A stretch of 64,000 bases of DNA from Takakia lepidozioides. Taxonomy: Eukaryota; Plantae; Bryophyta. Positions 1 to 59,748 of this stretch are shown here, in pieces; positions within the stretch are counted from its first letter, which is position 1, and every line of letters starts with the position of its first letter. The notes beneath the pieces are model-generated. The model ran no database searches. It had not been told where the DNA came from and saw only the letters and a list, made by a program, of their open reading frames with translations. The translations under genes and the position numbers were made by a program. The stretch spans positions 30,628,001-30,692,000 of the forward strand of contig CM060731.1 of assembly GCA_030704615.1 (NCBI GenBank), in the 5' to 3' direction.

Positions 1-2326
1 GAGGGAGCTCGGTCGTGCTCATGCACGCTCAACTTGAGAGAGATGAGCCGCACAACTGACGAGCTCATGAAAATAAGATGGTTCAGGTGTCAAGCTAAAC
101 TTGACACCTGACTTAACACTTGAACTAATTCTAAGTATTAAATATAAATAACTAGATTTATTCTAGTTAGTTTCACACTGTGTTCATTTAACTTGACAGT
201 TGTCGTACGCATACGTATCGCTACACAACTACATCGTTGTCCAAACCACACCACATATATATGCACAATACAGTAGTCTGCCACAATCGCCCCCTTAGCT
301 GGTGGTTAGGTCCCTCTAACTCCAGATATCTATAAGATGTAATAGCCACAGCCGTACTAAGTCATTTATCACTGTCCCTATTGTACTCAAACTCTATAGA
401 CCAAGAGGCCGGGTACAAGAGTAGCCCCATCGTTAGTCGTCGTCTTGCAATCTGTGAACTTGAGCCAGGATCTCGTGTGTTGGTCTCCTAGTAGCTTGGC
501 CTTGCATTTTTTGTTAGTCTTCCATGGTTGTATCCACTCCCACTATCCAATGCAATGCGGACATAACCAATCCCCATCAGGAACCATCTGAAGAGGTGGA
601 GTCAAGCATCCCATATGCCAACCTCTAGAGCATCGATCACACACCACCATGGTGGCTGCCCCTCTAGCAGACCCACACAACATGCACCTCAAACTTGCAG
701 GTACCATTGCCAGGTTTGGGTCAATCCTGCCATTGACATTCGGAAGGTGACATGGCGCGCAATTACGCACATGGTCCTTCTAATTCATGTCATCCCGACC
801 CTCCAAGATCAGGACGCTTGAGGGCAATACCTCTCGAACCCTCAAAATAACACGTCCTGCAGTCACATCCAGGGTCGTTGGAGCAGTCTGCTGCAGATAA
901 ACATAGTCACCAAGGTGAAATAATGGCAAAGTTCTCGAAAGCCATGGGCATGACTTTCTTGAACAAACTCCGCGCGCTGACCGCATGCACGTGCCCACAC
1001 GTCCGGATCGTCAAGATTGAGGACTACTACAGCCTCCCTGCGAATAGATGCAGACAAATCTGGCTCTCAGCCAAAGAGAAGGAAATAAGGCGAGAATGAG
1101 GCAAGTGATGTTTGCTTGCTGAACCTGTAGCCCATGGCTAACCAGGGTAGCTGAAGGTCCCAATCTCCAAGGTGTCCCTTCTGCAAACCATACTTGCGCA
1201 AACCCCTCTTAACCGTTTGCACAACCCTCTCTGCCAAGCCATCGGCCTCAGGATGATCCCGAGAAGTGGTGCGGTGGTCTATCAAGGCATTGTCACACAA
1301 CGCCTGAAACTCCCCCCAAGAACTCTCTCCCTTGATCCGTGAGTACCTCAGCTGGAGCACCGAATCGGCTAAGTACACGATCCAAGAATGCATACGCAGC
1401 TCCCTCACTAGTCTTATCAGGCAATGGAACCAAATCGATCCACTTGGAGAAGTGTTCCACCATCACCAACACGTACTTGTTGTGGCGCATGGTCAGTGGC
1501 AACGGCCTTGCGATGGTGTAGGAGCGTTGAATGAAGCACGCACCTTGTCACACACCATGCACCTAGCCACAAATTGTTGCATCTATGTGTGCATACCACG
1601 CCACGAATACTGCCTCTGCAGTAGACTATGAGTGCGTCGCACCCCAAAATGCCCCATCTCCTCATGAGCATGCTGCACTAACAGTGTCCGTTGTGTTGGG
1701 TGAGGCACAATCCTCACTCGACCATCCTCCCACATTCGGAGCAGGTGTGTCCCCTCCCACTTGAACCTCTTGGCTCGTTGTAGGATCCGATCCCTCTCCT
1801 TGGCAGTCATAGTGGCTGCCGTGTCTTCAGTGCGGAGATAGTCCAACACAGCTGAATCCTCATGTATATCTCTGGCGCCACCTTGCTCATTGTTGGCCTC
1901 AGGGTCCTCACACACTCGGTCTATAGTCATCCATGTTGTAGGTCCAACCTGGCCTTCCGCTGCCAAGATACACAAAAATGCAGATGCATGCCATCCGAGC
2001 ACCATCTCCTTGTCCGTCTCACCATGCCACCGAGCTCCAATGTCATCCTGCTGGCTCGTGCATGGATTGCGACTCAACTCATCCGCATCCCGATTGACTA
2101 GACCGGGTCGATGTACCACCTGCTAGAGTATGAGTGCCCACCGTGCAAGCTTTCCTATAAGCTTGTCTGACTCCATCAACCACTTGAGTGGCTGATGATC
2201 CGTGACAAGGGTGAAGAGATTGCCGTATAGATAGCACCTAAAGTCTGTCACGGCCCACACTGCAGCTAAGCACTCTCCCTCATATGAGCTATACTTAGCC
2301 TCTGCAGCGTTGTTCGAGCGGCTAGC
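1..2326 (-). mobile_element. Family A (DNMT/PHD Gypsy-type retrotransposon), copy A2, 3' part: RNaseH end, integrase, PHD finger, 3' UTR, repeat A (201-285), repeat B (1-198, runs off the window)
   Basis: Reverse complement of ~35270-37690. ORF fragments: SRSNNAAEAKYSSYEGECLAAVWAV (RNaseH), HAHEEMGHFG (zf-H2C2), rve core, PHD. Continues at 10732 beyond the CACTA insertion. Confidence 0.93.
543..2326 (-). pseudogene. Degenerate RNaseH-integrase-PHD finger coding region of copy A2
   Basis: ORFs 2123-2347, 1583-2119, 1293-1502, 1067-1408, 780-998 and 543-770 are consecutive pieces of the 35619-37154 protein, broken by stops, frameshifts and small deletions. C4-H-C3 PHD: CMLC...CDRCSRGWHMGCLTPPL..VPDGDWLCPHC. 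Confidence 0.92.
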
Positions 2327-5845: not shown

Positions 5846-5858
5846 TGTAGCGGCTGTG

Positions 5859-23462: not shown

Positions 23463-23944
23463 TTCTTCTTCTTGGGTCCTCGCCCTTGGTCTGCTCTTGG
23501 ATTATTTCTGTAATCCTGATTCCCGGGCTGGTAATTCCCCCTTGGATTACCCTGATAGTTGCCTCTGGAATTTCCTTGGTAATTCCCTCTTGAATTACCT
23601 CTCCTTTCCATGCCATTGTTATAACCACCACACCTACCATAGTGGTCCTGATCATTGTTTCTTTTTGGCTGGGGCTGCACCTGATGCACCCTTACTTGCC
23701 TAGGTTCTCTTGCAACTGTCCTTCTGTTGTAGTAATAATTCTCAGTAGAATGGTTATCCATTTTATAGATAGTACAGTGTTTCTCCTTCATGTGGCATTC
23801 TGTGGTGGTATGGCCTTCATTCTGGCACTTTGCACACCATACACCCTTCCTCCAATGTGTTGCAGCCTCTGTGGCATACTTCTTCAAGATTTCTTCCAAT
23901 CTTTTCTCATAGTTATCCCTCTTCAACTTCTCCTTTCTCTCAAC
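23459..23944 (-). pseudogene. Gag C-terminal part with zinc knuckles (Athila/Tat-like element)
   Basis: CAKCQNEGHTTTEC knuckle; joins the inverted N-terminal part as ...EEEEQELV|ERKEKLKRD. Confidence 0.85.
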
Positions 23945-24806
23945 ACAGCCCGTCACAATCCGACACAGCTCGTCACAGCCAACACAGCCCGTCACAGTCC
24001 GACACAGCTCGTCACAGCCAACACAGCCCGTCACAGTCCGACACAGCCGACACAGCCGACACAGCCAGTCACAGCTCGACACAGCTGACACAGTCCAACA
24101 CAGTCGCACAGCCAGTCAAAGCTTGACACAGCTGTCACGACCATAGGGAACAGATAGCAGGACAGGGAACGACTGTGGGGAACAACATCTGCGAATGGAA
24201 CATGTTAGTTCACGGATGACGGTTAGTGAGGGAAACGGTTAGAACAACGGGTAGGAAGATAAAGCCAGGAGCAAGGACTGGAAAATGATCGATTCTTGGA
24301 TCACTTCTGGGGGGAATCACTTCTTGGAGGAACTTCGGACATCACTGGGGGAAATGAGGAGAGAGCGTATCTCTGAGCAGAAAGAGGGAGAGCACGGAGT
24401 AGGAGGAGGATCTGTTGATGCTTAATGAATGCAGGCAGTAGAATTGTAATGTAGAGCAGATTAGAGACACCATGGCTTCAGCCTGATACTTGATAGATAT
24501 TAATCTAATACACACTTCATACTCACACTGTGTAGAGAGATCTGAGTGAAGCTGTGGAATGAATGGATGAGTTGATGGAATCCGATAGATTGATGAAGCA
24601 AATTGATACTTAATTACCAACAGTAAGGTAACTAGCTAACATGAATGCGGGAAGGAAAACAAATAGGAAACACCCCCATGATACACTAGCTGTAGGTCAT
24701 GACCGATTGTTCTGAGCGGGCTGAGTACTTAGAGATTTCCAACTCTTCTATCTTGGAGTTTTCGCCTCGGATAGCGAAGGGATGGGTGAGTAAAAGCCGC
24801 GCGACA
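23941..24806 (+). repeat. Major part of the 5' LTR of the Athila/Tat-like element, flipped by the inversion
   Basis: Reverse complement of 14210-~15000; ends GCGCGACA and is followed by the PBS. Confidence 0.92.
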
Positions 24807-26817: not shown

Positions 26818-26890
26818 GACGAGCTGTGTTGGCTGTGACGGGCTGTGTAATCCCCCCTAAAGTGTCTAAGTCCCAGCCATTCCTCTAACA

Positions 26891-28105
26891 GTAGTGCTGC
26901 CCCATACATAAATCCCATGCCTCCCATGTCTCCTCCGTCAGGATGACGCTGCTGAGGAGAAACAGGAGGTGGATCCTTAGGTCTTGAAGCTGGTACCACC
27001 TGAGCTGTGGCCATGGCAGCAAGCCTTTGCTCTAGCTGCTGAAGCCAGTTGGCCATGCCTTGGCAACGCCCTGACCTCCACGTCCTTGACCATATTGTGC
27101 TTGCCCTCGTCGTGCACCTCGTGCCTGACCACCTCATCCTCTCTGAGGTGCTCCACCTCGCCCTCGGCCACCATTGTTCCCTTGGAACTGGCCTCGCCGC
27201 AACTCAGGGTGCAAAGTCATAACACTGGGCCTCTGCATGCCCATAGTTGCCACAATGCCCACACTGCAACTGTGCAGGCTGTGCTTGTGCCGGCCCTTTT
27301 TCACTCTCTAGGCAATCTTTCTTGACATGGGGTCCTCCACATGTCCAACATACCACCCCTGGTTGATGTTGGCCTGCAAAAGAAGCTACTGGCCTCTACA
27401 CCTGTGGTCCCCTGTAAAGCTCCATGGAATTTAGGTTGGGCAACCGTGCCCCCCTGACCACGTTGTTGGGCAGTCCCTTGTGCCTGTTGGATGGCAGCTG
27501 CGCCTCGTGCAGGCATGTCCTTGTCAAATCCAATGGTAACAACTCGCTCCTCCACCATGTTGAGCTCAATCTGCTCAGCCAATAGAAACACATTTGCTAA
27601 TGTGGGTTGGGCCGCTTGTAACAGGGTTGCATCCCGCACCCTTCTTCTGAGCTCCTTGTCCAAAATTCCATACCAGAACTGGACTGCCTGAGCTTCAGTA
27701 ACCCTTTGGTCACACTTATCGAGCGCCTCATACGAGTGTAGGCCTCTCGCAAGCTCTCACTGGATTTGCGCTGGAAGTCTTGCAAACTTCGCAGCTTCTC
27801 TGTCCGTACTCCTTGGTAGTTCCTCCTTAACTCCTGGAAAAACTCCACCATTGGGTTGAAGACAGGAACGAGTGTTGGTGCTGCAGCAGGAGCTTGAATG
27901 GATTTCCCAGCTCCTGTACCACTTGTCCCACTACTAGTGTTTGCAGTTAGAGATGTTGGTGCTGATGCAGCTGTTGGTCGCGTCGTGCCTCAAATAATGG
28001 AGACGTAGTCAGGTGACCAATACATCCTCCACTCCTCAATCTCTGCTTCATGTCCTCGCCTGAACTCGTGGTAATCGTCCATAGGCGGGCCTTCCAAATG
28101 CTGGA
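26891..28105 (-). mobile_element. Family A copy A2, gag portion; 5'-truncated at ~28105
   Basis: QHLEGPPMDDYHEFRRGHE and EFFQELRRNYQGVRTEKLRSLQDF, colinear with ~30250-31450 but without the small inversion seen in A1. Confidence 0.9.
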
Positions 28106-29012
28106 GCTTTGCTTCTAACATATCCTTGAGGGCAGTTTCTTCACAAACAGAAAACCCTGCGAGAGCCAGTCCGCATATCATCACCACCAGGGTTTGAAAC
28201 TCTGCAGAATATTGCAACATTTTTCGCACACCCAAGCAAAATATTGTCGATGGTCATGGAGTACTGCTTTAAGACCTAGCCTCAAGTGACATAATCTGGA
28301 AACTATGGTTTTGATTTGGGAACGGCTAGTAGTAGCTCTTTAGAGAAAGATGTGACCATTACATTACACTTGGGGGTACCTGTTAGGTGCCAGGAACGAA
28401 GGTCGACCTGTCCACCAATTCGAAATAACAGACTGCTAGAATATCGCCGAACTGACAGTTGCAGGTTAAATGGAGCAGGCTCGCGTGCATGAAGATGATC
28501 CAGGACTAGGGATTTTTATGGGCGTGGACAGGGCAGGATGGCAGAAGTAGAGATGATGATGTACAGGCACCTTGAGCAGATCTGCATGGGCAGGAAATCT
28601 GATTGTAGCACGGCGTGGTGGCTGGGTGGACCGGATGTTGTAACCGGTGCTGTGCTTATAGAGTTGTAGGTTGATGTTGGAATAGACATCACTTGACTTT
28701 GGTGGCTTGCAGCAGCAGGGACTGTGATTTCTCTTTTGTATAAAGTGATGATGTAAATCTTGTGACTAAGGTTTCATCAAGAGTGATTTGAAGAGGGACA
28801 ATTTAGATCTGGTTCCAGTCACTGTTTGGAACAAGAAAGGTTCGCTTTGAGGCTTGTGAAGACGCTTCCGTGAAGAACAGGGCTGAACGATCGTTGGACT
28901 GGAGTGATCTCTGTTACGATCTGAGTCAAAGAGTTGTGACTGGAATAAAAGAGGCTGGTTACATGAGGTCCATACTGTTGTTGATTCAAGCAAGCAGATT
29001 TCTTGGGGTTCT

Positions 29013-29094
29013 TGTCGTGCGCATACGTATCGCTACACAACTACATCGTTGTCCAAACCACACCACACATATATGCACAATAAAGTAGTCTGCC
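29013..29094 (-). repeat. Terminal repeat A of copy A1
   Basis: Reverse complement of 37418-37499; same sequence at 201-285, 63232-63316 and 63679-63763. Confidence 0.95.
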
Positions 29095-29869
29095 CGCAAC
29101 CGTCTCAAAGCTTTCGAGTTGAGAGACTATCAGACCCTACCTTTGTTTTCTTTAGTGTTCAGTGAGCGAGAGATAGGGGAGTATTGCTTTGTCTCTACCT
29201 GGCAGAAAGAGGAGGAGGGTTGGTTAGAGTGAGCTACTGTAGCTTGGGACAAGGTTAGTGGCAGGTTTCTGGACATAGATATACCTCCTACACCTTACCA
29301 TCATGCAGAGCGAGGCACTTTGAGAGAAGTCTGGCAGTTGATAGCATAGATCAGGATTAGATCTTGCTTGGTCGGGCTTCTATTCTTCCCCTCCATCTCT
29401 GTACTATTTTCATTATCTTGTACTTGTAGTTGCCAAAGCCTCTCTTGGTGGAGGCCAGTCAGTCCGGGGTTTTGGGCTGGGATATTCTGCAGGATCAGTA
29501 TTGCAGATGGATTTTGGTGTGAGGGTGTTGATGTTTTGATTTCTTGTGTTTGGATCCCCCCCAACACCTGTATGCTTGACTGTGTGCCATGTTGGTTTTG
29601 TGTGGGCGCTTGCTTTCATAGGGATTAGGCCGGATTTGATCACCGGTCAATCCTAGAGTATGCTGTCGGTGGTGAGGCTGGAGTGATGACCAGCAAGACC
29701 ACCAGTGTTTCTTCTATGGTGAGACTGGGTTGATGACCAGCCAACCATAGGAGTTCTTGCGGTGGATGCAGGTGCAGGTGCCCTGAGCCACTGGGATATG
29801 ACCCTTAAACTGCAACAGGTGCCCACCCGTGTCATCATTAGAAATAGTACTAGAGCCTTATAGTGTCAC

Positions 29870-31330
29870 GTGGGGGAGGTGCACATTGTGAGTGTCATCA
29901 CGGAGTTACCCAGGGGTTCTGAGGGGAGTACGGCTACATGCAGTAGCAGTGAGAGTGGGTTCACCAGACGAGGTGTTCATTTCAGACCACCTTCACCTCC
30001 ACCCTCAACTAGTGCAGAGTCAGACACAGACTCGGAGGCTTCATCAACAAGTGTGCAGTTTCATTCGCCATTGTTGTGGGACGACATGGAGGAGATGTAT
30101 GGAGCTACCAAGGGGCCTCGTAGGTACTCTGGAGCTGTGGGCACAATTGAGCTGGATGACTTTATCCAGGAGTTCGACAGCTGGTGTGATTTGCAGCAGA
30201 TGCGCAATCCACAGCTGTTCACCCCATTCATGGCGTGGAAGGGACTGTTCCAGCATTTGGAAGGCCCGCCTATGGACGATTACCACGAGTTCAGGCGAGG
30301 ACATGAAACAGAGATTGAGGAGTGGAGGATGTATTGGTCACTTGACTACGTCTCCATTACTCGAGGCACGACGCGACAAGTAGCTGCATCAGTACCAATA
30401 TCTCCCACTGCCAGCACTAGTAGTGGAACAACTAGTGCCGGTACTTCTGCAGGTGGTTCCAGTTCAAAAGGTGCTACTACTCCTCCTGCCACGACTACAA
30501 CACATGTGCCTAGATTCAATCTGGTGGTGGAGTTCTTCCAGGAGTTGCGGAGGAACTACCAAGGTGTACGGACAGAGAAGCTGCGAAGTTTGCAAGACTT
30601 CCAGCGCAAACCCAGTGAGAGCTTGCGAGAGGCGTACACTCGTATAAGGCGCTTGATAAGTGTAGCTCCATGAAATTTGGGTTGGGAAACCTTGCCGCCC
30701 TGACCACGCTGTTGCGCAGTCCCTTGTGCCTGTGGGCTGGCAGTTGTGCCTCGTGCAGGCATGTCCTTGCCAAATCCAATGGTAACAACTTGCTCCTCCA
30801 CCATGTTGAGCTCAATCCGCTCAGCCAGCAGAAACACATCTGCTAATGTGGGTTGGGCTGCTTGTAACAGGGTTGCATCTCGCACCCTTCTTTTGAGCTC
30901 TTTGTCCATAATTCCATACCAAAACTGGATTGCTTGAGCTTTAGTAACCCCTTGGGTCCAGGGGACCTCAGGTGCAGAGGCCATTAGCATTTTTTGCAAG
31001 CCAACAGCAACCAGGGATGATATGTTGGACAAGTGGAGGACCCCATGTCAAGAGAGATTGCCTAGAGAGTGGCAAAAGGCCGACACAAACACAGCCTGCA
31101 CAGTTGCAGTGTGGGCATTGTGGCAAGTATGGGCATGGAGATGCCCAGTGTTGTGACTTGCATCCTGAGTTGCGCCCAGGCCAGTTCCAAGGGAACAATG
31201 GTGGGCGGGGGCGAGGTGGACCAGCCTAGAGAGGACGAGGTGCAGGCCAAGGGCAAGCTCAACATGGCCAAGGACGCGGAGGTCAGGGTGTTGACCAAGG
31301 CATGGCCAACCGGCTTCAGTAGCTAGAGCA
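29870..31330 (+). pseudogene. Gag of copy A1 with two zinc knuckles; 295-bp inversion at 30664-30958
   Basis: YSGAVGTIELDDFIQEFDSWC..FQRKPSESLREAYTR; knuckles CWTSGGPHVKRDC and CGHCGKYGHGDAQC. Confidence 0.85.
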
Positions 31331-32059
31331 GAGGCTTGCTGCCATGGCTACAGCTCAGGTGGTACCGGCTCCCAGGCGGGATGGTCCACCTCCTGCGCCT
31401 GAGGGAGGAGATATGAGAGGCATGGGATTCATGTGCGGAGCAGCGCTACCACTAGAGCAGGTGCAGTTTGCTGCAGCCGTGACTCGAGGAGCATCACGAG
31501 TTCCTGAGCCATGAGGTGCAGAGGTGGAATTGGATCCATAGCGTGGGGAGGCAAGCCGTCAGGCAAGGCTTCCTCAGTCATTCACATTGGCGGAGACAGT
31601 GTTGACGCCATCCATGGCACCTAGTTCTCGCCCGACTGTTACCGAGGCGGAGGTTACTATGCCATTGGGGAGAGCTACACGTGCAGCACTGACACCTGCT
31701 ACCAAGGCTAGTGCAGCCGGTGTGTTGTTGGGGGCAGCCACCTCTGTGTGTCAAGCCCCACTGTTCTCGGCAACCATGATTGCGATGCCGGGGGTAAGAC
31801 CAGCTGCAGTGTTCAGACTAGCAACAACACTCTGTGAGAGTGGGGAGGTCACTTCATCTTCTGTGGAGTTAGTGGAAGGTGTAGTGGCAGAGGGATCCTC
31901 GGATTTGAGGGTCAAGACTGCCACGGCTACGCCATGGCAAGCTGCAGCTGCCAGGTTGACGGAGCTGCCAGCTAGGCCAGCCTTTGAGCGCGCCATGGTG
32001 ACACCTGGAGTTGTCTTGTTAGACAACCAGGATGCATTTTCACTTTGAGTGGACCGGCA

Positions 32060-32450
32060 GGTAAGAAGTACCGGCCACTGCGGGTCTTGTTGGACTCGAG
32101 AGCTCAGCCACTGATGTTGGGCAGAGCTGCTATTGCAGGTTTGGGCCTCATGGAGGCGGATATGGAGCCTTGTCCTTTCCAGATATAGACATCTCTGGGA
32201 GGATCAGAGCAGGCTCGGGGCATGACACGACGTGAGTTGGTCATTGGACTACAGCCGGATCACCCTACAGATGGCTCAGTAATGCGAGCCAAGGCCATTG
32301 TGACAGACGCAGTCTCGTACGATGTCCTGGTTGGTGGGGAAGTGTTGTACTCCATGAGCTTCACCCTGGATTTTTGGGAGGAGTCAGCTTCCTATAGGCC
32401 TGGATGGCAGTTAGGGGAGGGTCGTCGTGTACAGCTCCCTGTGAAATTCA
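32060..32450 (+). pseudogene. Aspartic protease of copy A1
   Basis: VLLDS(R/G)AQPLMLG..SYDVLVGG; the intact DSG is present in copy A2. Confidence 0.8.
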
Positions 32451-32799
32451 TTGGAGGTATTGCGGCTGCCCAACGGGGCAGGATGCCAACATTAGCCGCC
32501 TTTACAGCTGCAGTTAGTTGGCCTGGAGAGTTGCTGGAAGGCAATGCCCATGCAGAGGATGTGTCACCTTCAGCAGAGCAAGATGACATGCATGGTACGG
32601 CGGAGTTGCCTGCCATGGTTGCTCACACTCCATTGTGGGGTACGAGCAAGGATTTGCAGCAGGCTGCTGATGGACGGGTACAACAAGCCTGGGTAGAGGC
32701 CTTCGTACCGTCAGTAGAAGAGGAGAGTGCGGTGATTGCACCAGGACCACCTCAGTTGTCGCCATTGGACACCACACCTCTTATGTGGCAGTGCCCGGA

Positions 32800-33765
32800 T
32801 AAAGGCATATGCCTTCTGGACTTGTTTGGCGGGATCAGCAGTGGATTAGCTGCATACCTGCAGGCAGGTGTACGAGTTCGACGTTACCTGTATGGAGAGG
32901 GATGAGACTGCACGACGCGTTTCACTTCGCCATGTTGCTTAGTTGGTGCAGCGGTACCCTGAGTTGTTGTCGGTGTCTGCAGTTCGTGGATACCAACAAG
33001 CCTTGCCAGCAGACATTTTATTGCTGGGGGCGCAGGATTTGGAGCGGGTTGGCTCCATTGATCTGGTAGTGGCAGGTTGGCCCTGCCAAGGGCATTCATC
33101 AGCCGGGCATGGCAATGGATTGCGAGACTCGAGGACGGGTCTGTTTTGGGAGATGGTGCGGGTTTTGCGCCACTTGCAGCTTCATCAAGCTGTATCTCCA
33201 GCATACATCTTGGAGAATGTGCCACTGATGGGTGATTCTCGGGCCAGGGTGATGGCCAGTGTGCATCAAGTCCGGTCATGGCTTGGGTCAACAGTGTTGC
33301 TGGATGCAGCTGCAGTGGGGTCACGGGCTCATCGTCCACGGCTATGATGGATTAATTTGATGCCACCCGCACTGCTCAAGCGTGCATTTGATGGGGTGCA
33401 GCGGCCAGCACACCTCACAGTGAATAGCATTTTGGACACAGGGAGGCAGTCTCAACGTGTGAGACACGATGACCGTTCGCCTTTGGCAGTGGTCAACAGG
33501 GTGGGTCAACCACGAGCAGGATTACCTACACTGCTCAGCTTCCCAGGATCCCATGCTTTTCGGGATGGTGGACCTGGCCTCTTGTGGGATAGCCAATTGC
33601 AACAATTAGTGGAGCCCAATGCTAATGAGCGCGAGCGGGCAATGGGTTTTACCACTGGTACCATGGCGGTGCCATCTCTTTCTGAGGCATCACGTCGTCA
33701 GGTGTTGGGGCAAGCAATGGATCTCAATTGCTTGACCTGGATTATCAGCTTGGCTATGGCCGAGC
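32800..33765 (+). pseudogene. DNMT3-like C5 cytosine DNA methyltransferase domain within pol of copy A1
   Basis: Motifs in canonical order: LLDLFGGISSG (I), YLY.E (II), IDLVVAGWPCQGHS (IV), LFWE (V), YILENV (VI), DAAAVGSRAHRPRL(W)W (VIII), ERERAMGF (IX), RRQVLGQAMD (X). One frameshift at ~32893 and one TGG>TGA stop at 33345. Confidence 0.93.
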
Positions 33766-34214
33766 AGCGCAGAGTACGGAGTACACTTCCCTTCATGGTC
33801 TCCCTGCCTACCCAGACGGTACAGGCAGCGAGTGGGGGCGAGCAGGTGAGGACCACAAGGTGCAGGCCGCATCCATGGCACACGTGGGAGGTGCTCGAGG
33901 TTCAGAAGGAGTTGGCAGCCAAGGCAGCCGTGATGGATGAGGTTGGGGATTCTTCTCGGGTTGATGAGGTCCTCAAGGATGAGATGATGGGGCAGGATGA
34001 GGCCTTGTCATTGACTGAGCAGGCAGGGAGTACTGCTCAAGAGGTTGCGGCATAGCAACCACAGGATGCGTCCTCTACCTCTAAGCCCACTGGACTTAAG
34101 GTTGCAGTTATGGAGGATAATTGGAAGCCTGACATTGGACCCATTGTCACCGGAGGAGAGAGATGACGTATACGGTGGTTCCTGAGGGCTTACAGGAATT
34201 GCTTTGCCTTTAGT

Positions 34215-35594
34215 TTGAAGGACTTAGGAGCACTGAAGGGTCAAGAGATTCGCATTGAATTGGCTACTGACACGCCAATCTTTCGGAGACCCTATAGATA
34301 CAGTGACATGAAGAGGTCCTTGATTCAGATGAGAACTCAGGACCTTTGGGAGGCTGGTTTGGTGGAGCTATCTGGGGGAGAGTATGATTCAGCCACAGTG
34401 ATGCCAGCCAAGAAGGATGTCTATGGCAATTGGACGGAGAGACGTATGTGCGGTGATTACCGGCCTGTAAATCGTCAGACCAAGTCCGATAGGTATGCTA
34501 TGGCGACACCAGAGGAGATCTTTGATGCCATTGGGCATGCCAAGGTCTTTAGCACGTTGGATTTACGATCCGGATATCACCAGTTGCCGATCAAGGAGGC
34601 GGATAAGCAGAAGACGACATTCTGGGGGATCAATGAGCACGGGAAGGATTGCCTATACCAGTGGCGGTTCTTACCATTTGGGCTTAAAAACGCTCCTGCT
34701 GAGTTTCAAAGAGTCATGGACAGGATTCTAGCAGGGGTGGAGTTTGCTCAGTGCTACATAGATGACATCATCATCTTTAGTGCTACGGTGGAAGAGCATG
34801 AGAGACACCTTCAGGGGGTATTTGAGCACTTGAGGGCGCACGGATTGAAGTTACATCCGGGAAAGTGCAAGTTTTTCCACAACCAGATTAAGTATCTGGG
34901 TCAGCAGACTAAGGTAGAGTCCATTGCACAGGTTCCACGCCCCACGGATGTGAGCCGAGTTCGGGCTTTCATGGGGTTAGCAAACTATTATAGACGGTTT
35001 GTTAAGGGATTTAGTGCCATTGCAAAGGCTCTAACCAAGCTGACCAAGGTGGACCAGGAGTGGCAGTGGGAAGATGAGCAAGAACAAGCTTTTCAAGAGC
35101 TCAAGGCGAGGTTGACCTCGGCGCCCATCTTGAGACGACCTATCAGGGGGCGTCCTTTTCAGCTGCATACAGATTGGAGCATGCTGGGGCTTGGAGCGGT
35201 GCTCACACAAGTGGATGATGAGGGAAGAGAGTTCGTAGTGGCTTATGCTAGTCGCTCGAACAACGCGGCAGAGTCTAAGTATAGCTCATATGAAGGAGAA
35301 TGCTTAGCTGCAGTGTGGGCCGTGACACACTTCAGGTGCTATCTATACGGCAATCTCTTCACCCTTGTCATGGATCACCAACCACTCAAGTGGTTGATGG
35401 AGTCAGACAAGCTTACGGGGAAGCTTGCACGGTGGGCACTCATCCTTCAAGAGTATGACTTTCAGGTTGTGCATCGACCGGGTTTGGTCAATTGCAATGC
35501 AGATGGGTTGAGTCGCAATCCATGCACGAGCCAGCAGGATGACACTGGAGCTCGGTGGCATGGTGAGACGGATGAGGAGATGGTACCCGGATGA
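34215..35594 (+). CDS. Reverse transcriptase + RNaseH of copy A1
   Basis: [62 protein letters not shown]. Confidence 0.96.
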   Translation: MKDLGALKGQEIRIELATDTPIFRRPYRYSDMKRSLIQMRTQDLWEAGLVELSGGEYDSATVMPAKKDVYGNWTERRMCGDYRPVNRQTKSDRYAMATPEEIFDAIGHAKVFSTLDLRSGYHQLPIKEADKQKTTFWGINEHGKDCLYQWRFLPFGLKNAPAEFQRVMDRILAGVEFAQCYIDDIIIFSATVEEHERHLQGVFEHLRAHGLKLHPGKCKFFHNQIKYLGQQTKVESIAQVPRPTDVSRVRAFMGLANYYRRFVKGFSAIAKALTKLTKVDQEWQWEDEQEQAFQELKARLTSAPILRRPIRGRPFQLHTDWSMLGLGAVLTQVDDEGREFVVAYASRSNNAAESKYSSYEGECLAAVWAVTHFRCYLYGNLFTLVMDHQPLKWLMESDKLTGKLARWALILQEYDFQVVHRPGLVNCNADGLSRNPCTSQQDDTGARWHGETDEEMVPG

Positions 35595-35618
35595 CATGCA
35601 TCTGCATTTCTGTGTATC

Positions 35619-37154
35619 TTGGCAGCGGAAGTCCAGGTTGGACCTGCAACAGGGATGATTGTAGATCAAGTGTCTGAGGACCCTGAGGCCAGCAATGAGC
35701 AAGGTGGTGCCAAAGATATACATGAGGATTCAGCTGTGTTGGACTATCTTTGCACTGGAGATACGGCAGCCACTATGACTGCCAATGAGAGGGATCGGAT
35801 CCTACAACGAGCCAAGAGGTTCAAGTGGGAGGGGACACACCTGCTCCGAGTGTGGGAGGATAGTCGAGTGAGGATTGTGCCTCACCCAACACAGCTGGCA
35901 CGGTTAGTGCGGCATGCTCATGAGGAGTTGGGGCATTTTGGGGTGCGACGCACTCATAGTCTACTGCAGGGGCAGTATTGGTGGCGTGGTATGCACACAG
36001 AGGTGCAACAATTTGTGGCTAGGTGCATGGTGTGTGACAGGGTGCGTGCTTCATTCAACGCCCCTACTCCACAATTGCACCCTCTTCCGATCATGGGATT
36101 GGGCTACAGGTGGAATCTTGACTTCGCAGGGCCGTTGCCACTGACCATGCGCCACAACAAGTACGTGTTGGTGATGGTGGAGCACTTCTCCAAGTGGATT
36201 GAGTTGGTTCCATTGCCTGATAAGGCTAGTGAGGGAGCTGCGTATGCATTCTTGGATTGTGTGCTTAGCGGATTCGGTGCTCCAGCTGAGGTACTCACGG
36301 ACCAAGGGAGAGAGTTCTTGGGGGAGTTTCAGGCTTTGTGTGATAAGGCCTTGATAGACCACCGCACCACTTCTCGGGATCATCCTCAGGCCGATGGCTT
36401 GGCAGAGAGAGTTGTTCAGACAGTAAAGAGGGGTTTGCGCAAGTATGGCTTGCAGAAGGGACACCTAGGAGATTGGGACCTTCAGTTACCCTGGTTAGCC
36501 ATGGGCTACAGATTCAGCAAGCAAGCATCACTTGCCTCCTTCTCACCATACTTTCTTCTCTTCGGCCGAGAGCCGGATTTGCCTACATCCATTCGCAGAG
36601 AAGCTGCTACAATTCTTAACCTTGACGATCCGGACGTGTGGGCACGTGCATGTGAGCAGCGTGCAGAGTTGTTCAAGAAAGTCATGGCTTTCGAGAACCT
36701 TGCCATTGCACAACACCGTGATACGTTGAGGTATGCTACCATACGTGGTGGGGGCTATCGTCCTGGGGTTCGAAGATTCAACCCTGGTGACTATGTCTAT
36801 CTGCAGCAGACTGCTCCTACGACCTTGGATGTGACTGCAGGATGTGTTATTTTGAGGGTTCGAGAGGTCTTGCCCTCAGGCGTCTTGGTCTTGGAGGGTC
36901 GGGATGGCATAACATGGAAGGACCATGTGCGTAATTGTGCGCCATGTCACCTTCCGAATGTCGATGGCAGGATTGACCCAAACCTGGCAGTGGTATCTGC
37001 AAGTTTGAGGTGCATGTTGTGTGGGTCTGCTAGAGGGGCAGCCACCATGCTGGTGTGTGATCGATGCTCTAGAGGTTGGCATATGGGATGCTTGACTCCA
37101 CCTCTTGAGATGGTTCCGGATGGGGATTGGTTATGTCCACATTGCATTGGATAG
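35619..37154 (+). CDS. DDE integrase with C-terminal PHD finger, copy A1
   Basis: HAHEELGH..CMVC zinc finger; LDFAGP / LTDQGREF / GLAERVVQTVK (D,D,E); RRFNPGDYVYL; C4-H-C3 PHD at ~37010-37146. Confidence 0.96.
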   Translation: MAAEVQVGPATGMIVDQVSEDPEASNEQGGAKDIHEDSAVLDYLCTGDTAATMTANERDRILQRAKRFKWEGTHLLRVWEDSRVRIVPHPTQLARLVRHAHEELGHFGVRRTHSLLQGQYWWRGMHTEVQQFVARCMVCDRVRASFNAPTPQLHPLPIMGLGYRWNLDFAGPLPLTMRHNKYVLVMVEHFSKWIELVPLPDKASEGAAYAFLDCVLSGFGAPAEVLTDQGREFLGEFQALCDKALIDHRTTSRDHPQADGLAERVVQTVKRGLRKYGLQKGHLGDWDLQLPWLAMGYRFSKQASLASFSPYFLLFGREPDLPTSIRREAATILNLDDPDVWARACEQRAELFKKVMAFENLAIAQHRDTLRYATIRGGGYRPGVRRFNPGDYVYLQQTAPTTLDVTAGCVILRVREVLPSGVLVLEGRDGITWKDHVRNCAPCHLPNVDGRIDPNLAVVSASLRCMLCGSARGAATMLVCDRCSRGWHMGCLTPPLEMVPDGDWLCPHCIG

Positions 37155-37414
37155 TGGGAGTGGATACAACCATGGAAGGCTAACAAGAAATGCAAGGCCA
37201 AGCTACTAGGAGACCTTGAATACACGAGATCTTGGCTCAAGTTCACAGATTGCAAGACGGCGACTAACGATGGGGCTACTCTTGTACCCGGCCTCTTGGT
37301 CTATAGAGTTTGAGTACAATATGGATAGTGATAGAGGACTTAGTACGGCTATGGCTATTACATCTTGTAGCTCTCTGGAGGTAGAGGGACCTATCCACCA
37401 GCTAGGGGGGCAAT

Positions 37415-37854
37415 TGTGGCAGACTACTTTATTGTGCATATATGTGTGGTGTGGTTTGGACAGCGATGTAGTTGTGTAGCGATACGTATGCGCACGACAG
37501 CTGTCAAGTTAAATAAGCACAGTGTGAAACTAACTAGAATAAAGCTAGTTATTTGTATTTAACACTTGGATTTAGGTCAAGTGTTAAATCAGGTGTCAAG
37601 TTTAGTTTGACACCTGAACCGTCTTATCTTCACGAGAGCGTCAGTCGCGCAACTCATCTCTCTCGAGTTGAGCCTGCGCGACCGAGCTCCTTCATCGTTT
37701 AGAACTGAGTGTGCTTATGATGGGAGGATAGGTTGTTGTGGGGTGGAGTCCCCATAGCTTGGGGTGCCCCTGGCTCGACTATTATCTGAAAGAGTGATGA
37801 CGAGATGGATTTCATGTTTCTTGTGTTAAGAGTGTGTTTCTAGTTTTCTTATCA
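37415..37854 (+). repeat. Internal A-GC-B junction repeat (A 37415-37499, GC spacer, B 37502-37854), preceded by a polypurine tract
   Basis: AGCTAGGGGGGCAAT then TGTGGCAG...GCACGACA-GC-TGTCAAGTT...CTTATCA; each half matches one terminus of the element. Confidence 0.93.
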
Positions 37855-39455
37855 GAACTGACTCATAGCAGGGAGCTCCCTTGCTCTGCAATGGGCCCCG
37901 TCTTCTTTGCCTCCCGCTCTTTTTCATGTGCCTACTCACCTCCCTCTCAGTGCAGCATTCCTTCTAATGCTACCCCCAGGCTCACAATTTCATGTTGCCA
38001 CCAATGCAGGGAAGTGCCACCAATCCCGAGCTTATTCTGTCTTCCTTGAAAGCCTGTTGGCCTCTCAACTACTCAAAACACTACTCAATGTATGATTAGT
38101 GCTATCTCCAAGGTATCTTGGATTCCCAATGCCCTCTAGCCTTTGAAGTATTTCCTGCTATGGCAGTCAGGAGCCTAGCGTTCTGTGGAAACACAACAGT
38201 ATAACAGGACACAAACCCACGAACAAAACCTCAACTACTTAAGGTCTAATGAGCTCCAGCTCCGAGGTATGTTTCTTTTCTCCAAAATGCACTCTGCCTG
38301 CCGAGATATTTCAAAAACCCACAAACTGAAAAACCCTCGACCACCTGAGCAAATGTTGTTGTGTTGATCCGAGGCCTTCTGAGTCTTGTCTTCCGAATAC
38401 CCTCCAAATGCTCAGAGCTGTCCAGCTACGGAGGTGAGGGGCGTGCCCTAAAGGAAGAAGAACTGATGAGAAAGAATACACATGAGGTGTAGCTACCACT
38501 TAGAAGGGACTCCGTACTTGGGCCTTGACAAGTAGGATCCCGCTTTCAGCTCCATAACCCAGTCCTTAATCACAAATCGCCCCTCTCAGATCCCGCCTCC
38601 TCTTCACTGCTGCCCAGCTAGTACCCCTTATGCACAGCCCACATAATCCTTCTCCCCCAACAAGCCCACTGGCCTGCTCAACAAAAAGCCCAGCGAAGGC
38701 CCTCAACGAGAAGGCCCCCGGCGCCACAGACACCACGCCCCCGTAGCCTCTCCATAGGCCTGGGCCAGTTACCGGATCACCACACGCACCTCGCACCTCG
38801 CCAGTAGCTTCACTGGCGCGACTCCTCAAGCTTCTCCAACATGCTGTGATTCTGGATGGGCTACTCTTTGTTTGAGCAGCATGCTGTGGACGCCGAGCTA
38901 CCACTCATTGAAGAAGAACGCTCCGGATTCGAACTGCAAAGCATTGGCCTCAGCATGTCCAAAATTGACGAAATGCAACACTGCCCAAAGGCCTATCCAC
39001 ACGTCCCTCAGCTTCACTACCCCACAGTGAGGCCCGATGGCCGTGAAGGCCAGTACCTTCCGCTCACCCAACTGCCCAAAAACACTCAAATTGACACAGC
39101 TTCTTTCAGATTCTCAGCCTGCTGTCGGATAGTCGAGCCAAGATTCTCTGCCTGGTCGGTACCATCCTCCAGATTTCTCTTGCTGGTGCGGGCAGTAGAA
39201 TCAGCTCGATTCTTCAGATCAGCTGACGCCTTTCCTGCCTACGGCAGTGCACGGTTCTCATCCAGCCAAGCAATCAGCAGCGCAGCCCACACACCCCACT
39301 CTTAGATATAACCACCGGTTGACAGAAATCGCAGCAACATCTCAAGCCTCCTGTTCTGATCCCCGTGACCAAGCTATATTATAATAGTGCTTAAAAAACA
39401 AAAACATAATATCTAGCTTAGCACTGAAAAACTAGATAGAGTCATCTCTCTCGAG

Positions 39456-39808
39456 TGATAAGAAAACTAGAAACACACTCTTAACACAAGAAACATGAAA
39501 TTCATCTCGTCATCACTCTTTCAGATAATAGTCGAGCCAGGGGCACCCCAAGCTATGGGGACTCCACCCCACAACAACCTATCCCCCCATCATAAGCACA
39601 CTCAGTTCTAAACGATGAAGGAGCTCGGTCGCGCAGGCTCAACTCGAGAGAGATGAGCTGCGCGACTGACGCTCTCGTGAAGATAAGACGGTTTAGGTGT
39701 CAAACTAAACTTGACACCTGATTTAACACTTGACCTAAATCCAAGTGTTAAATACAAATAACTAGCTTTATTCTAGTTAGTTTCACATTGTGCTTATTTA
39801 ACTTGACA
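39456..39808 (-). repeat. Terminal repeat B of copy A1
   Basis: Reverse complement of 37502-37854 (353 bp, about five substitutions by eye). Confidence 0.95.
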
Positions 39809-39901
39809 TTCTGATAAATTCCCTGTGAATAGCAAGATAAACGAAGCGCCTGAAATTTGGTCATAGTCGGACTGAAGAGAGAGAGTTAGATACTTTTCAA
39901 G

Positions 39902-39913
39902 TGGTATCAGAGC
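39902..39913 (+). promoter_or_regulatory. Primer-binding site for initiator tRNA-Met (chromovirus)
   Basis: TGGTATCAGAGC, two bases after the LTR-terminal CA at 39899. Confidence 0.92.
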
Positions 39914-40133
39914 TGGGTTTGCGATCGGGGAGAACAGATCTTGAAATTTCGGAATTTCCAGAAGTAGGGAAATCGTGTGAATGAGCCAGATCTCGTTCGG
40001 CTCTGTGAGCACACACCCCGGTGACGACGACAAGGATAGTGAAATGGCGGGAGACCGTGAGCGCTCCGATGTGGCCAGCCTACACCGAGCTTCAGATCGC
40101 GAACGTGGGAGTCAGTTGTTTTCCCAGTAGCAG

Positions 40134-43100
40134 ATGGAGGCCCTAGGCACTTTAATTCGATCTGAGATACAGAAATTGGCCCCTGCACCAACTCAAACTG
40201 AAAAGCAATCTCAGGAGCTACCTGTGAGTGAGCCACGGAATGAGGACGAATCTGAGGCCGACTCCCATGAGGCCAAGATGAAAAGAAGCAAAGATGTCAC
40301 TAGAGAAATCAGAAGGTTGGTGAAATTGCCAGAGTTTTACGGTAAGCCTTCTGTGAAGCCTGAGGAGATTTTGTCCTTTTTGGATACCCTAGAAGAATTT
40401 TTCGAAGAGGACTACTCCGAAGAGGCAAAAATCCAGACCGTGGCCTTGCAGCTTCGTGATGCCGCAAAGCTGTGGTGGTCACGGCAGAAACAGGAAAGGC
40501 GAGAGCATAAGAAACCACCAGTTGATACATGGGCGACATTCATGACACTATTTCTGGCTCACTATCTCCCTGGTGACTATGCTCATAGGATGAAGGTTGA
40601 ATTGTTCAGGTTGAAACAAGAGACTTTGAACGTGGGAGAGTTTAAGACGAAGTTTGAGACGCATGCCAATTATTTCCCCTCGCTGAGTGAAGAAGACAGA
40701 GTTGATTTTTTTATTGATGGCCTCAGTGATTCTCTCAAATTTAAGGTCAAAGCCCACAACCCTCATACCGAGGCAAAAGCATATCGTTTGGCCTGTAATT
40801 TTGAGAATGAAGTGAGGGCACAACGTTCTTCGAATTTTGCTCGTGGCACGGCAGAGTTCAAGCCTAGATCATCTGGTCCTTGGCAGTCACCAGCGAAGAG
40901 AGGGAATTGGAAGAGATTTAAACCGTTTAAGAAGGTGGGGGATCAAGCTACACGGAGACCGCCCATGAGGGCTCCTCCAAGGCTCAGTTTCAAAGAGCAA
41001 GAAGAACACAGACGTAAGGGTTTGTGTTTCTTGTGCCATGAACCCGGACACAGAGCTGCTGAGTGTACGAAGTACCCGAATTATCGTCAGGCTCGACAGA
41101 CCGCCGCCTTGACAGTTGAAGAGCCTGCAGAACCTTGTGCGGTTGTTGAAACTGGGGAGAAGTCAGGACAAGAAAAAAGGGAAAGGTCCTAATGTGCGGG
41201 TTTCTGCAGCTATCATTACAGACCAAATAGAGCACAACCCGAGTGTGATACGGGTTCAAGGGAGAGTGGCTGGAATTTCCACTCAGGTGCTGATTGATAC
41301 GGGCAGCACCCATAACCTGTTGTCAAAGGGTTTCGCTGACAAGTTGGGACTAGTTCAAAAAGACATGCAACCCTGTCAAATCCTGTTACCAGATGGTGGC
41401 GTGGATTCTACGCACAAACACATCTCAAATGTACCGATGGTCATGCAAGGCGTACAAACTATGGCGGACTTCGAGGTCTGGGAAGGAGCTCGGTACGATT
41501 GCATCCTTGGCATGCGGTGGCTGGATCTGGTTGATGCTGTGGTCGCTTGCAAGTCCAGACTGGTTAGTGGTACAGGGTGGTACCTTGCCCAACGGGAAGG
41601 GATTCAATATCAGAGGTACTAGAGCTCTTCCCAATGTACATGTCTTGTCAGCTATTCAGATGAAGAGATGTATGCGGAAGTGGAATGCTCAGCTTTTTGC
41701 TGTTAGCTTGCATGAGGTCTTGGAAACAAATCAGGAAGAAGGGAAGTCACATCCCAAACTTGACCTAATCCTGAATGAATATAAAGATATGTTTCCTAAT
41801 GAGATCCCTGGAATGCCCCCTGAACGGGAGGTTGATCATGCTATCGAGTTGATGACAGATGCTGTACCGGTTGCAAGGGCGCCGTACAGGCATTCAATTG
41901 CAGAAAGTGAAGAGTTAGAAAGGCAGTTGAATGACCTATTGGAAAAGGGGTATATTCGTCCAAGCAAATCCCCTTGGGGTGCCCCTGTAATGTTTAAGAA
42001 GAAGAAAGACGGGACTTTGAGACTATGTGTGGACTATAGATGGTTGAATAAGGTCACCATCAAGAATAAGTTTCATTTGCCTCATGTGGACGATTTGTTT
42101 GACTATCTGTATGGAAGTCAGGTTTTTTCAAAACTTGATCTTCGGTCCGGATATCATCAGATACGGATCAAGAATTCTGACATACCAAAGACTGGATTTC
42201 GGTCTCGTTTTGGTCATTACGAATTCTTGGTGATGCCATTTGGGCTCACAAATGCTCCAGCAACATTTACTCATTTGATGAATTCCATGTTCCAGAAATA
42301 TTTGGGGAAGATGGTCTTAGTCTACATGGATGATATACTGATATACTCGAAGTCTGAAGAAGAACATGAACAGCATCTACGCTTGGTCTTAGACATACTT
42401 AGAGAGAACCACATGTTTGCTAAGAGAAACAAGTGTGAGTTCTTTGTAGACCACATGGATTACTTGGGATTTTGCATCTCTAAAAATGGAATTTCAATTG
42501 ATCCTAAGAAAGTCCAGACAGTGGTTGAATGGCCTAAACCAAGTGATAAGACTGAGGTCAAGAGCTTTATTGGGTTTGCTAGCTTCCTACGGAAGTTTGT
42601 CAAATCTTTTTCACAGATTGCAACCCCATTGACTGACCTGCTTAAGGACTCGAGTCCTGTAAGCTTGAAAGACGTCTGGACAAGAAAATGTGATAATAGT
42701 TTCGAGAAATTGAAGTTTGCCTTGACATATGCTCCTGTACTGAGATTGCTCGACCCTACAAAGGGAGCAATCGTACTATGTACCAATGCAAGTGATCTTG
42801 CTATTGGAGCTGTGCTGATGCAAGATGGGCAGGTGATTGCCTATGGATCTCGAAAGATCAGTCCAGCGGAAAAGAATTACCCAACTCATGAAAAAGAACT
42901 GTTGGCAATAGTTCATGCTCTGAAGATATGGAGGCATTACTTGCTTCCAGTTGATTTTGTGATAGAGACTGACCATCAGAGTTTGAAATACTTGACCACA
43001 CAACCTCATTTAAGTCAGAGGCGGATTAGGTGGTCAGAACTGCTTCAGCAGTTCCATTATGACCTAAAGTATGTCAAGGGGAGAGAGAATGTGATTGCTG

Positions 43101-44524
43101 ATGCACTTTCTAGGAGACCATTACAAGCTTATGTTGTCTCATGCGTCAGTAGCACTATATTTCTGGACATTAAAGGTCAGTATGAGATTGATAAATTCTT
43201 CAAAGAGCCATTTAAGAGTTTGTCTCGTGACCAAAGAACTTCTATTGAGAAAGAAAAGTACCGGCCATACCTCTTGAGAGATGGGGTGTTATTTTATAAT
43301 GGTCGGCTGTGTGTTCCCTTGATCCCAGACTTGAGATTGCGGATTATTCATGACAGTCACAATATTCCAATCTCAGGACACCCGGGCTTTCAGAGGACCT
43401 ACTGGTCAATATGAAAACATTATTTCTGGCCGGGCATGAAAAGAGAAATCAAAGAATATGTACATAAATGTTTCCCTTGTCAAGTTTCAAAGTCAGAGAG
43501 AGTCAGACCTCCTGGATTACTACAACCATTATCTGTTCTTGGATGGAATTGGGAATCCATTAGCATGGATTTCATTGTGGCATTACCCAGGACCAGAAAC
43601 GGCCATGATAATATCATGGTGGTTGTAGATAGGCTGTCTAAGATAGCCCACTTGATACCTACAAGGATGAGTGCTACAGCATCTGATGTTGCATCCTTGT
43701 ATATGAAAGAGATATTCAGGATCCATGGTCTGCCTCAAGAGATTATTTGTGACAGGGACTCAAAGTTTACAAGTCATTTTTGGATTGACTTGTTCAAGAA
43801 ATTGGGAACCAAGGTGAGGCTAAGTACGGTCTTTCACCCAGAAACAGATGCTGAGACAGAAAGAACCAACCGTACAATAGAGGATATGTTGAGGACGTAC
43901 GTTTGTGAAAGACAGTCCTCTTGGGAACAATATCTGTATATGGTGGAATTTGCCTATAACAAGCATTTCCACAGTGCCATTGGCATGAGCCCATTTGAAG
44001 CTTTATATGGACGAGATTGCTTAGCTCCTGCTTTGCTTATTGCACCACCATCAAGTGTGCAGAGTGTGAATGACAGGATCAAAGAGATGCACTCTGTGCT
44101 GGATTTGGTGAAGCGTAGTATGCAGGCTGCGCAGGAACGGGCCAAGTTCTTTGCTGATAAGCACAAAACTTTTCGTGAATTTGACGTTGGTGATATGGTG
44201 TTTTTGAAAGTTACACCTAAAAGAAGCAATCTAACACTGGGCAAGTGTTATAAGTTGTCACCAAGGTTTTGTGGCCTGTTTAAAATCCTGAAACGCCATG
44301 GCACAGTGGCCTATGAGATGGATCTGCCTCCAACACCCGAAAAGATTCTAGAAACGCGAGTGAAGCACCTGCGCAATCGTTCTTGGAAAGAACATTTGAT
44401 TAAGTGGTTGCATTACCCAGAGACAGAGGCTACTTGGGAGAAGGAAAATGAATTGACATTGAATTACCCCTCGTTTTCTGTCATTGAGGACAATGACCTG
44501 TCTTTGGGAGGGGGAGTTTGTTAG
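40134..44524 (+). pseudogene. Chromovirus gag-pol (gag, zinc knuckle, protease, RT, RNaseH, integrase, chromodomain) with two frameshifts and a stop
   Basis: CFLCHEPGHRAAEC; VLIDTGSTHN; [10 protein letters not shown]; [11 protein letters not shown]; SISMDFIVALP; chromodomain PEKILETR..HLIKWLHYPETEATWE. Confidence 0.95.
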
Positions 44525-47970: not shown

Positions 47971-48089
47971 GAGTTATTACCTATTCAAAAAGTGTGTGGG
48001 ATAAGGTTAATAAATAGCAACTTTTCATTCTGTTTTCATCCAATTATTTTATTTTTCATTCATTTTTTTTAGACTGTACGTCATTTTTT

Positions 48090-59707: not shown

Positions 59708-59708
<1 letters not shown>

Positions 59709-59748
<40 letters not shown>

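Follow-up and report, generated by a model that had tools for sequence, protein, structure and literature searches.

The 64,000-nucleotide stretch of Takakia lepidozioides DNA analysed here (the window) contains three copies of a retrotransposon that encodes a DNA methyltransferase (MTase), set among other mobile elements and an intron-containing gene. Copy 1 sits within the 5' LTR of a chromovirus (28381-45238) that encodes gag, protease, reverse transcriptase (RT), integrase, SH3 and chromodomain and whose LTRs differ at 18 of 719 positions. Copy 2 is split by nested insertions, its segments lying at 1-2326, 10732-14208 and 26883-28105: a patchwork repeat block (2327-10731) divides it, and a non-chromovirus Gypsy element (14210-24806, minus strand), with 825-bp LTRs that are 97.6% alike and long extra frames without Pfam matches (15744-19817), is inserted in it. 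Copy 3 is represented by its 3' end (63232-64000, minus strand). Elsewhere lie a LINE fragment (46781-47973, zf-RVT), AT-rich tandem arrays (48000-51300) and an MRS2 magnesium-transporter gene (54233-58612, minus strand), adjoined by a decayed, inverted partial duplicate of itself (59294-61318, plus strand, 72% identical). The MRS2 exons are 83% identical to those of Marchantia, 80-81% to mosses, Riccia and Calypogeia, 79% to Psilotum and 76-78% to seed plants, and in a comparison that included no lycophyte, hornwort or alga the gene falls outside the seed-plant plus Psilotum clade. The gene thus marks its host as a land plant outside the seed plants, which agrees with the land-plant host proposed in a preliminary description of the window.

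Copy 1 encodes, in order and on the plus strand, gag, protease, MTase, RT, RNase H, integrase and a PHD finger. The same order is shared, as far as each reaches, by the best 80 of 313 metagenome loci (loci L001-L080 were chosen by their MTase and are silent on how often it is retained). A 5' leader common to the family (29095-30085), with host-contig cover like that of the rest of the element, precedes gag (30086 to approximately 31990), which is 62-68% identical to the N-terminus of Marchantia Mp_4g09160 and carries, among further lesions, a 292-bp inversion (30664-30955) seen by comparison with copy 2. The aspartic-protease-like domain (32012-32398) is recognised by its motif, LLDS.AQP (32087); Pfam protease matches were obtained in homologues P0016, P0029 and P0071 only, with none in the window copy. 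Beyond the MTase (32801-33755) lie a conserved stop codon with its context, TAG CAA CCA (34053-34061), which ends the Gag-PR-MTase frame and is in frame with RT, then RT and RNase H (34287-35462; Pfam RVT_1 and RT_RNaseH, with the RT motif YIDD at 34755), a DDE integrase (35880-36584; Pfam H2C2 and rve) and the C-terminal PHD finger (37011-37145; PF00628, E=2.9e-10). The placing of the MTase between protease and RT in the preliminary description is borne out, whereas its assignment to the inside of pol needs amendment: in copy 1 and in most close relatives the conserved stop divides MTase from RT, and the enzyme ends the Gag-PR frame ahead of what is likely to be a leaky stop.

Both MTase domains display the motif set of C5 cytosine methyltransferases, namely I, IV (PC), VI (ENV), VIII (RxR), IX and X. 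Copy 1 reads LDLFGGI (32816-32836), GWPCQG (33075-33092), ILENV (33207-33221), DAAAVGSRAHR (33303-33335), ERERAMGF (33627-33650) and RRQVLG (33693-33710), and copy 2 (11904-12857, minus strand) has the identical order from 12842 down to 11949; the two domains are 87% identical. PF00145 matches both above its curated cut-off of 22, copy 1 at 49.4 bits (E=5.8e-13, for the part 3' of its frameshift) and copy 2 at 35.4 bits (E=1e-8), and when a profile of 15 non-window homologues is used instead, the score of copy 2 is 444 bits, whereas 500 shuffles gave at best 3.0. Ordered motifs in two copies, an HMM match and different lesions in each copy had all been claimed or proposed as checks beforehand, and all hold: copy 1 has one frameshift near 32892 and two stops, and copy 2 has eight stops in a single frame, at sites that differ from those of copy 1.

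A sequence search of the PDB ranks DNMT3A and DNMT3B first among solved structures, with DNMT3A (E=3.5e-8) ahead of M.HhaI (6.5e-3) and the DRM-type 4onj (0.022). A structure model of L002, a naturally intact relative (pLDDT 83.8), aligns to DNMT3A/B over 267 residues (Z 28, rmsd 2.8), as against Z 23-25 for bacterial enzymes, and its residues 1..318 are colinear with DNMT3A 632..905, with no circular permutation. Judged by sequence and modelled fold, both window domains are unpermuted C5 MTases whose closest counterparts among solved enzymes are DNMT3A and DNMT3B, as the preliminary description had supposed; a DRM enzyme, the circularly permuted type, is ruled out by the linear I-to-X motif order and the colinear model. 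A Pfam search found no DUF3444 with the element MTase. In a redundant set of 159 full-length domains the motif-IV cysteine is matched in 148, EN in 149 and RxR in 135. Motif IV is ECQ rather than PCQ in 58 of the 159 (the L045-L080 clade and P0041-type proteins), and this variant includes an entire clade under purifying selection.

The stop that follows the MTase recurs in relatives. Proteins from Marchantia, Calypogeia and other sources terminate ~80-130 residues past the MTase, and Mp_4g09160 (P0002) is annotated as an apparently unbroken Gag-PR-MTase frame. Clade 1 is Sphagnum-like, its protease having a median identity of 84% to a Sphagnum protein as against 71% to Marchantia; 40 of its loci were examined, of which 34 cover the site and yield 27 independent copies. 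The stop falls at the same codon in 26 of these 27 (the next stop column stands at 19%) and is followed by CAA CCY in 25. UAG-CAR-YYA is the tobamovirus-type readthrough signal (PMC3542737). Exact CAR-YYA is present in the window, L027, L029, L036, L066 and L111, more distant relatives have TAG CAG TTA or TAG CAA TCA, and the CAA CCC of clade 1 is one base away from the consensus. These sequences make it likely that MTase synthesis keeps pace with that of Gag and that RT-IN-PHD is produced by readthrough. In copy 2 the stop was lost to a 309-bp in-frame deletion, and only for that reason does the frame run on into RT. The shared stop is absent from clade 2 (L045-L080), where, as in P0071, P0091, P0099 and P0129, the MTase occupies the same ORF as RT/RNase H.

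The termini of the element do not form an ordinary LTR pair. Its layout is a-coding-PPT-b-GC-a-b, where a is a long repeat (the TG..CA LTR proper), b a short one and PPT a polypurine-tract-like run. Copy 3 shows the standard order at its 3' end (PPT, b, GC, a, a 15-nt filler, b, flank), and b-a-b 3' ends are likewise seen in L018, L035, L038, L047, L050, L056, L058, L059 and L115. Copy 1 is flanked by the target-site duplication TTCT (29009-29012, within the chromovirus 5' LTR, and 39809-39812, both plus strand), and host contigs span its empty site (29007-39808). It begins with an inverted terminal b (29013-29094, minus strand; the end reads TGTC on the plus strand) and ends with an inverted terminal a (39456-39808, minus strand). 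Internally, a polypurine-tract-like run (37400-37412) stands directly 5' of a b-GC-a unit (37413-37854, a being 37502-37854), whose internal joint is the palindrome GACAGCTGTC (37496-37505), all on the plus strand. The terminal and internal a differ at 5 of 353 positions. Copy 1 follows this standard layout except that its interior is inverted. A DIRS1-type inverted design (ICR) was considered for it and rejected, since the split repeats of copy 3 and of the relatives are direct.

Copy 1 has also captured, between a and the leader, ~1.5 kb of copy-specific filler (37855-39380, the right border being approximate) that is low-copy in the host, the summed contig depth dropping there from ~1e6 to 1e2-1e3. 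The one long frame of the filler has no Pfam match, and part of the filler is well covered in a sequencing run guessed to be RNA. Internal inversions recur (window 29013-39808, L019/L025, L026 and L051): L019 and L025, which represent one insertion, begin with an inverted b, and L051 with an inverted a. Such recurrent inversions could stem from mis-joined or self-integrated extrachromosomal DNA.

Across the family, repeat a starts with TG in all 24 independent left ends (27 were examined), while the last bases of b are GACA or a close variant. The purine run lies ahead of b in the three window copies, as it does in relatives; across elements the internal joint reads as the palindrome or a decayed form of it, and the a|b joint is either blunt or carries filler. 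Exact 4-bp target duplications flank six of the eight elements for which both ends are available; L024 has one mismatch and L050 has no duplication. Following a in copy 1 is a 14-nt self-primer (39442-39455, minus strand) complementary to position 153 of repeat a, a match reached by none of 2000 shuffles. Self-primers of 12-16 nt at LTR position 153-165 were found in 7 of 18 elements tested, involving three unrelated LTR sequences, and are shorter or absent in the other 11. The sequence after a fits self-priming of the Tf1 type.

The mirror arrangement, a-b-a-coding-b, was seen in none of the 24 independent left ends. From the anatomy of the ends, the integrase likely cuts inside an LTR of a circular intermediate, and foamy-virus integrase is reported to cleave palindromic circle junctions (PMC1180852). 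L111 was assembled as a circle with a 127-bp end overlap, although collapse of repeats in short-read assembly would look alike. Elements of the form a-coding-b (L016, with a duplication) fit integration of a one-LTR circle or, equally, recombination between two b repeats.

The family is very large: 84,124 contigs of one host run fall on the element, a figure that is no copy number but implies multiplication on a great scale, as the preliminary description had proposed. The MTase is covered in this run like the neighbouring parts. In the run guessed to be RNA, contigs fall on parts of the element and the MTase core is barely covered. Comparison of the window copies gave dN/dS values of 0.35 for MTase, 0.33 for RT and 0.19 for integrase, and in all five between-subfamily comparisons, some of them near saturation, the MTase value was 0.056-0.12. 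Within-clade analysis of two clades, each with 29 independent copies (from 37 and 32), gave dN/dS of 1.04 and 0.90 for private changes and of 0.58 and 0.37 for shared changes, the latter falling to 0.37 and 0.08 when C>T/G>A changes were left out. These values together indicate that the MTase was conserved for as long as the element was active and degenerated only later; purifying selection thus preceded insertion. The three results named in advance as counting against the preliminary description (no HMM match, dN/dS near 1 on internal branches, a domain absent from most members) were none of them found within the family. CpG observed/expected is 0.52-0.53 in the element as against 0.43 and 0.20 in the two MTase-less Gypsy elements of the window, so that, in this comparison, no extra CpG loss was found that would signal self-methylation.

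MTase homologues with a named source belong to Marchantia polymorpha and Calypogeia fissa (57-69% identity) and to Sphagnum (44-52%), and homologues of the RT extend the list to Coleochaete, Klebsormidium, Closterium, Tetraselmis and Haematococcus. The MTase lies before RT in Closterium and Tetraselmis and after RNase H in Haematococcus and many other proteins; the Coleochaete and Klebsormidium ORFs retrieved are without it. The persistence of the lineage in an embryophyte, as first described, is therefore correct but understates its range, which takes in liverworts (Marchantia, Calypogeia), mosses (Sphagnum), Closterium and chlorophytes, in the last of which the MTase mostly follows RNase H. 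Among 89 proteins with both domains, 20 of the 24 strongly supported MTase splits recur in the RT tree and one conflicts; the 62 proteins with MTase between RNase H and integrase form one group in both trees. The RT of the window element, which is placed apart from that of the window's own chromovirus, groups with Marchantia and the Sphagnum-like clade and then with Coleochaete (94.6/99), and the whole green-plant clade has a long stem and weak bootstrap support (89.7/47). The simplest reading suggested by these trees is that the domain was captured once, long ago, in green plants and later changed position.

An RT-selected scan returned six loci, L111-L116: L111 has an MTase, L113 and L114 do not, L112 and L115 lack the upstream part and L116 is distant. 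L113 and L114 are intact and nested in the clade with MTase after RNase H, with an MTase match neither before RT nor after RNase H; the palindrome is retained in L112, which belongs to their group. To judge by these two loci, at least one sublineage can do without the MTase, and the L112-L114 group offers a natural control for its function.

Retrotransposon-borne DNMT3 domains have been described in KnitGypsy-Dnmt3 of Klebsormidium nitens and in SymbioDIRS-Dnmt3 (PMC5890265). KnitGypsy-Dnmt3, the nearest system so far described, resembles the present element in its Gypsy enzymes, its intronless, unpermuted DNMT3-like domain under purifying selection and its DIRS-like repeat layout (PMC5890265, Fig. 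4c legend); the arrangement A-coding-B-A-B is the one given there for SymbioDIRS. The MTase of KnitGypsy-Dnmt3, however, shares the Pol ORF with its RT and RNase H, whereas in our element it ends the Gag-PR frame ahead of the probable leaky stop, and the element differs also in its land-plant host, very many copies and green-plant span. Target duplications, palindromic junction, PPT, self-primer and PHD finger receive no mention for KnitGypsy-Dnmt3 in the accessible portion of that paper, which treats the capture as an event of the K. nitens lineage; two later papers use 'streptophytes' in referring to the earlier work. Three K. nitens RT-RH proteins belong to the same broad lineage as the window element (50%, 46% and 46% identity), and the K. 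nitens RTs form a 97/93 clade with the window group in IQ-TREE and fall elsewhere in FastTree. The element probably shares descent with KnitGypsy-Dnmt3, the two being likened by RT and published description rather than by the K. nitens MTase, and the tree evidence suggests that such elements are no Klebsormidium peculiarity.

SymbioDIRS-Dnmt3 likewise has a DNMT3-like domain in its polyprotein, split direct repeats and two domain orders, but it uses a tyrosine recombinase where our element has a DDE integrase and 4-bp target duplications (PMC5890265). Of the features that define DIRS/Ngaro elements, the split direct repeats are present and the tyrosine recombinase is absent: the element's frames gave no recombinase match and do contain an rve integrase. 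Of those that define Ty3/Gypsy, the order PR-RT-RH-IN with DDE integrase, the TG..CA ends and a duplication within 4-6 bp are all found, and two identical direct LTRs around the coding region are not. The host DNMT3s of plants (PpDNMT3a/b; Yaari 2019, PMC6453930) share with the element an unpermuted DNMT3-type catalytic domain in non-flowering streptophytes but carry DUF3444, whereas the element MTase has neither introns nor DUF3444 and is made within a polyprotein. Tf1/Sushi and Tcn1 have, like the element, a primer site complementary to the 5' LTR (Neumann 2019, PMC6317226), and Phygy and Selgy are likewise Ty3/Gypsy elements of non-seed plants (PMC6317226); these have ordinary LTR pairs, unlike our element, and Tcn1 a chromodomain. 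EpiLTRs (bioRxiv 10.64898/2026.05.21.726589) also combine LTR-element structure with a DNA methyltransferase and a chromatin-reader domain, but have a DNMT4-related domain, DAM and a chromodomain, and are stated by their authors to be distinct from streptophyte Gypsy-DNMT3. Membership of Troyka was rejected, since those elements have CG..CG ends, a 3-bp duplication and animal hosts (PMC12440569) where ours has TG..CA and 4 bp.

We found no description of an element of this kind in land plants or chlorophytes in the literature, of which supplementary files and Repbase may hold bryophyte members; the accessible portions of PMC12344493, PMC12885004, PMC11982613, PMC10952607, PMC6453930, PMC9985172, PMC11244446 and bioRxiv 10.64898/2026.05.21.726589 contain none. 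Nor did we find any description of a leaky stop, target duplications or internal cut site in such elements. What is new here is the stoichiometry signal, the anatomy of integration, the green-plant range and the presence in Marchantia; the principle was already published.

Why a transposon should carry its own silencing enzyme has been an open question since de Mendoza 2018 (PMC5890265). Our preferred reading, which we consider evenly poised between right and wrong, has the MTase produced in step with Gag, enclosed in the particle and used to methylate the element's new DNA before insertion. Most ribosomes would terminate at the UAG, the few that pass it giving RT-IN-PHD, so that particles would hold many more MTase than RT molecules, and the protease would free the MTase. 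Reverse transcription would be self-primed, as in Tf1, from the sequence after a, and the plus strand would start at the PPT before b, giving a linear DNA with b-GC-a at both ends. These ends would then be joined into a circle, the a|b joint being blunt or carrying filler, and cleavage by the integrase of the palindrome in the upstream LTR would yield exactly a-coding-b-GC-a-b. The MTase would methylate this extrachromosomal DNA, probably at CG by analogy with SymbioDIRS-Dnmt3, reported to methylate CG de novo (PMC5890265), so that it would enter the genome marked like host DNA, while the PHD finger may steer integration via histone H3 tails. Against this route, the mirror product that a symmetric circle model predicts is seen in none of 24 left ends. 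The one-base departure of the clade-1 context from the readthrough consensus, the lack of a shared stop in clade 2 and the short or missing self-primer in 11 of 18 elements also tell against the reading. Three findings count against self-methylation: the K. nitens domain produced no methylation in yeast, a result its authors call inconclusive (PMC5890265), there is no extra CpG loss, and one intact sublineage manages without the MTase.

The MTase might instead act on host chromatin at the insertion site, as part of the rarer readthrough polyprotein with integrase and PHD finger, the new copy and its flanks being methylated after insertion (for self-limitation or camouflage). Animal DNMT3, which couples an ADD finger to catalysis, provides a parallel. 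In favour of this, PHD and MTase are found together throughout the lineage, 62 of 89 proteins have their MTase between RNase H and integrase, and the PHD of the lineage resembles the KDM5, PHF21A, CHD4 and BAZ2B fingers in the PDB, several of which read unmethylated H3K4. We nonetheless think insertion-site action unlikely, as in the window subfamily the stop divides most MTase from integrase, a protease is present that would be expected to split the polyprotein, and an MTase-less relative retains its PHD.

That the MTase is kept not for catalysis on DNA but as a nucleocapsid-like accessory that binds cDNA or genomic RNA to coat or shield it, or for RNA methylation, seems quite improbable. Gag-level expression would suit a structural role and the missing CpG signature agrees with one, as does the inactivity of the K. 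nitens enzyme in yeast, inconclusive as its authors judge it (PMC5890265); yet most domains retain the catalytic cysteine, EN and RxR across the chlorophyte-streptophyte span, and the fold is closest to those of DNA enzymes. A longer shot is that the MTase shields the internal b-GC-a site from the element's own integrase in the manner of restriction-modification, which would explain why one of two identical sites is cut. The asymmetry of the cut (no mirror form in 24), the cytosines in the palindrome and the occurrence of split termini and MTase together in four clades speak for such shielding. Against it stands L112, which retains the palindrome although the other two members of its sublineage are without MTase, L112 itself missing its upstream part. 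Passive capture of a host DNMT3 fragment that is merely decaying would fit the broken state of both window copies and private changes at dN/dS near 1, but is scarcely credible and is, we consider, ruled out by selection and co-divergence: the position is constant in liverwort, moss and Closterium elements, the RT tree reproduces 20 of 24 strong MTase splits, between-subfamily dN/dS is 0.06-0.12, and there is no DUF3444, unlike in plant host DNMT3s (PMC6453930).

Methylation of the element's DNA before insertion and methylation at the insertion site are separated by the stoichiometry that the stop position predicts, and since the family is present in the genetic model Marchantia polymorpha, activity, packaging and readthrough should be directly testable. 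Circles are usually regarded as dead ends for integration; the split ends, together with target duplications of integrase type, point to routine integration from them and show that a DIRS-like layout needs no tyrosine recombinase. We offer tentatively, and without expecting every part of it to stand, the broader proposition that these elements form a class of integrase-bearing retrotransposons spanning green plants and predating the chlorophyte-streptophyte split, which circularise and are cut at a palindrome inside the LTR, and whose land-plant branch packs a DNMT3-like enzyme at capsid stoichiometry, by way of a TMV-type leaky stop, so that the circle is methylated ahead of its entry into the genome. 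If so, end-on integration would have been given up, programs that search for LTR pairs would miss or mis-delimit the class, and it may account for a large share of seed-free plant genomes that is not annotated, and for de novo methylation that has gone uncounted.

The element was not found in viral contigs, where phage MTases gave weak matches only (28-48% identity over short stretches). L111-L116, P0186 and P0341 occur in records labelled as bacterial metagenome-assembled genomes, in which plant or algal elements are most likely contamination.
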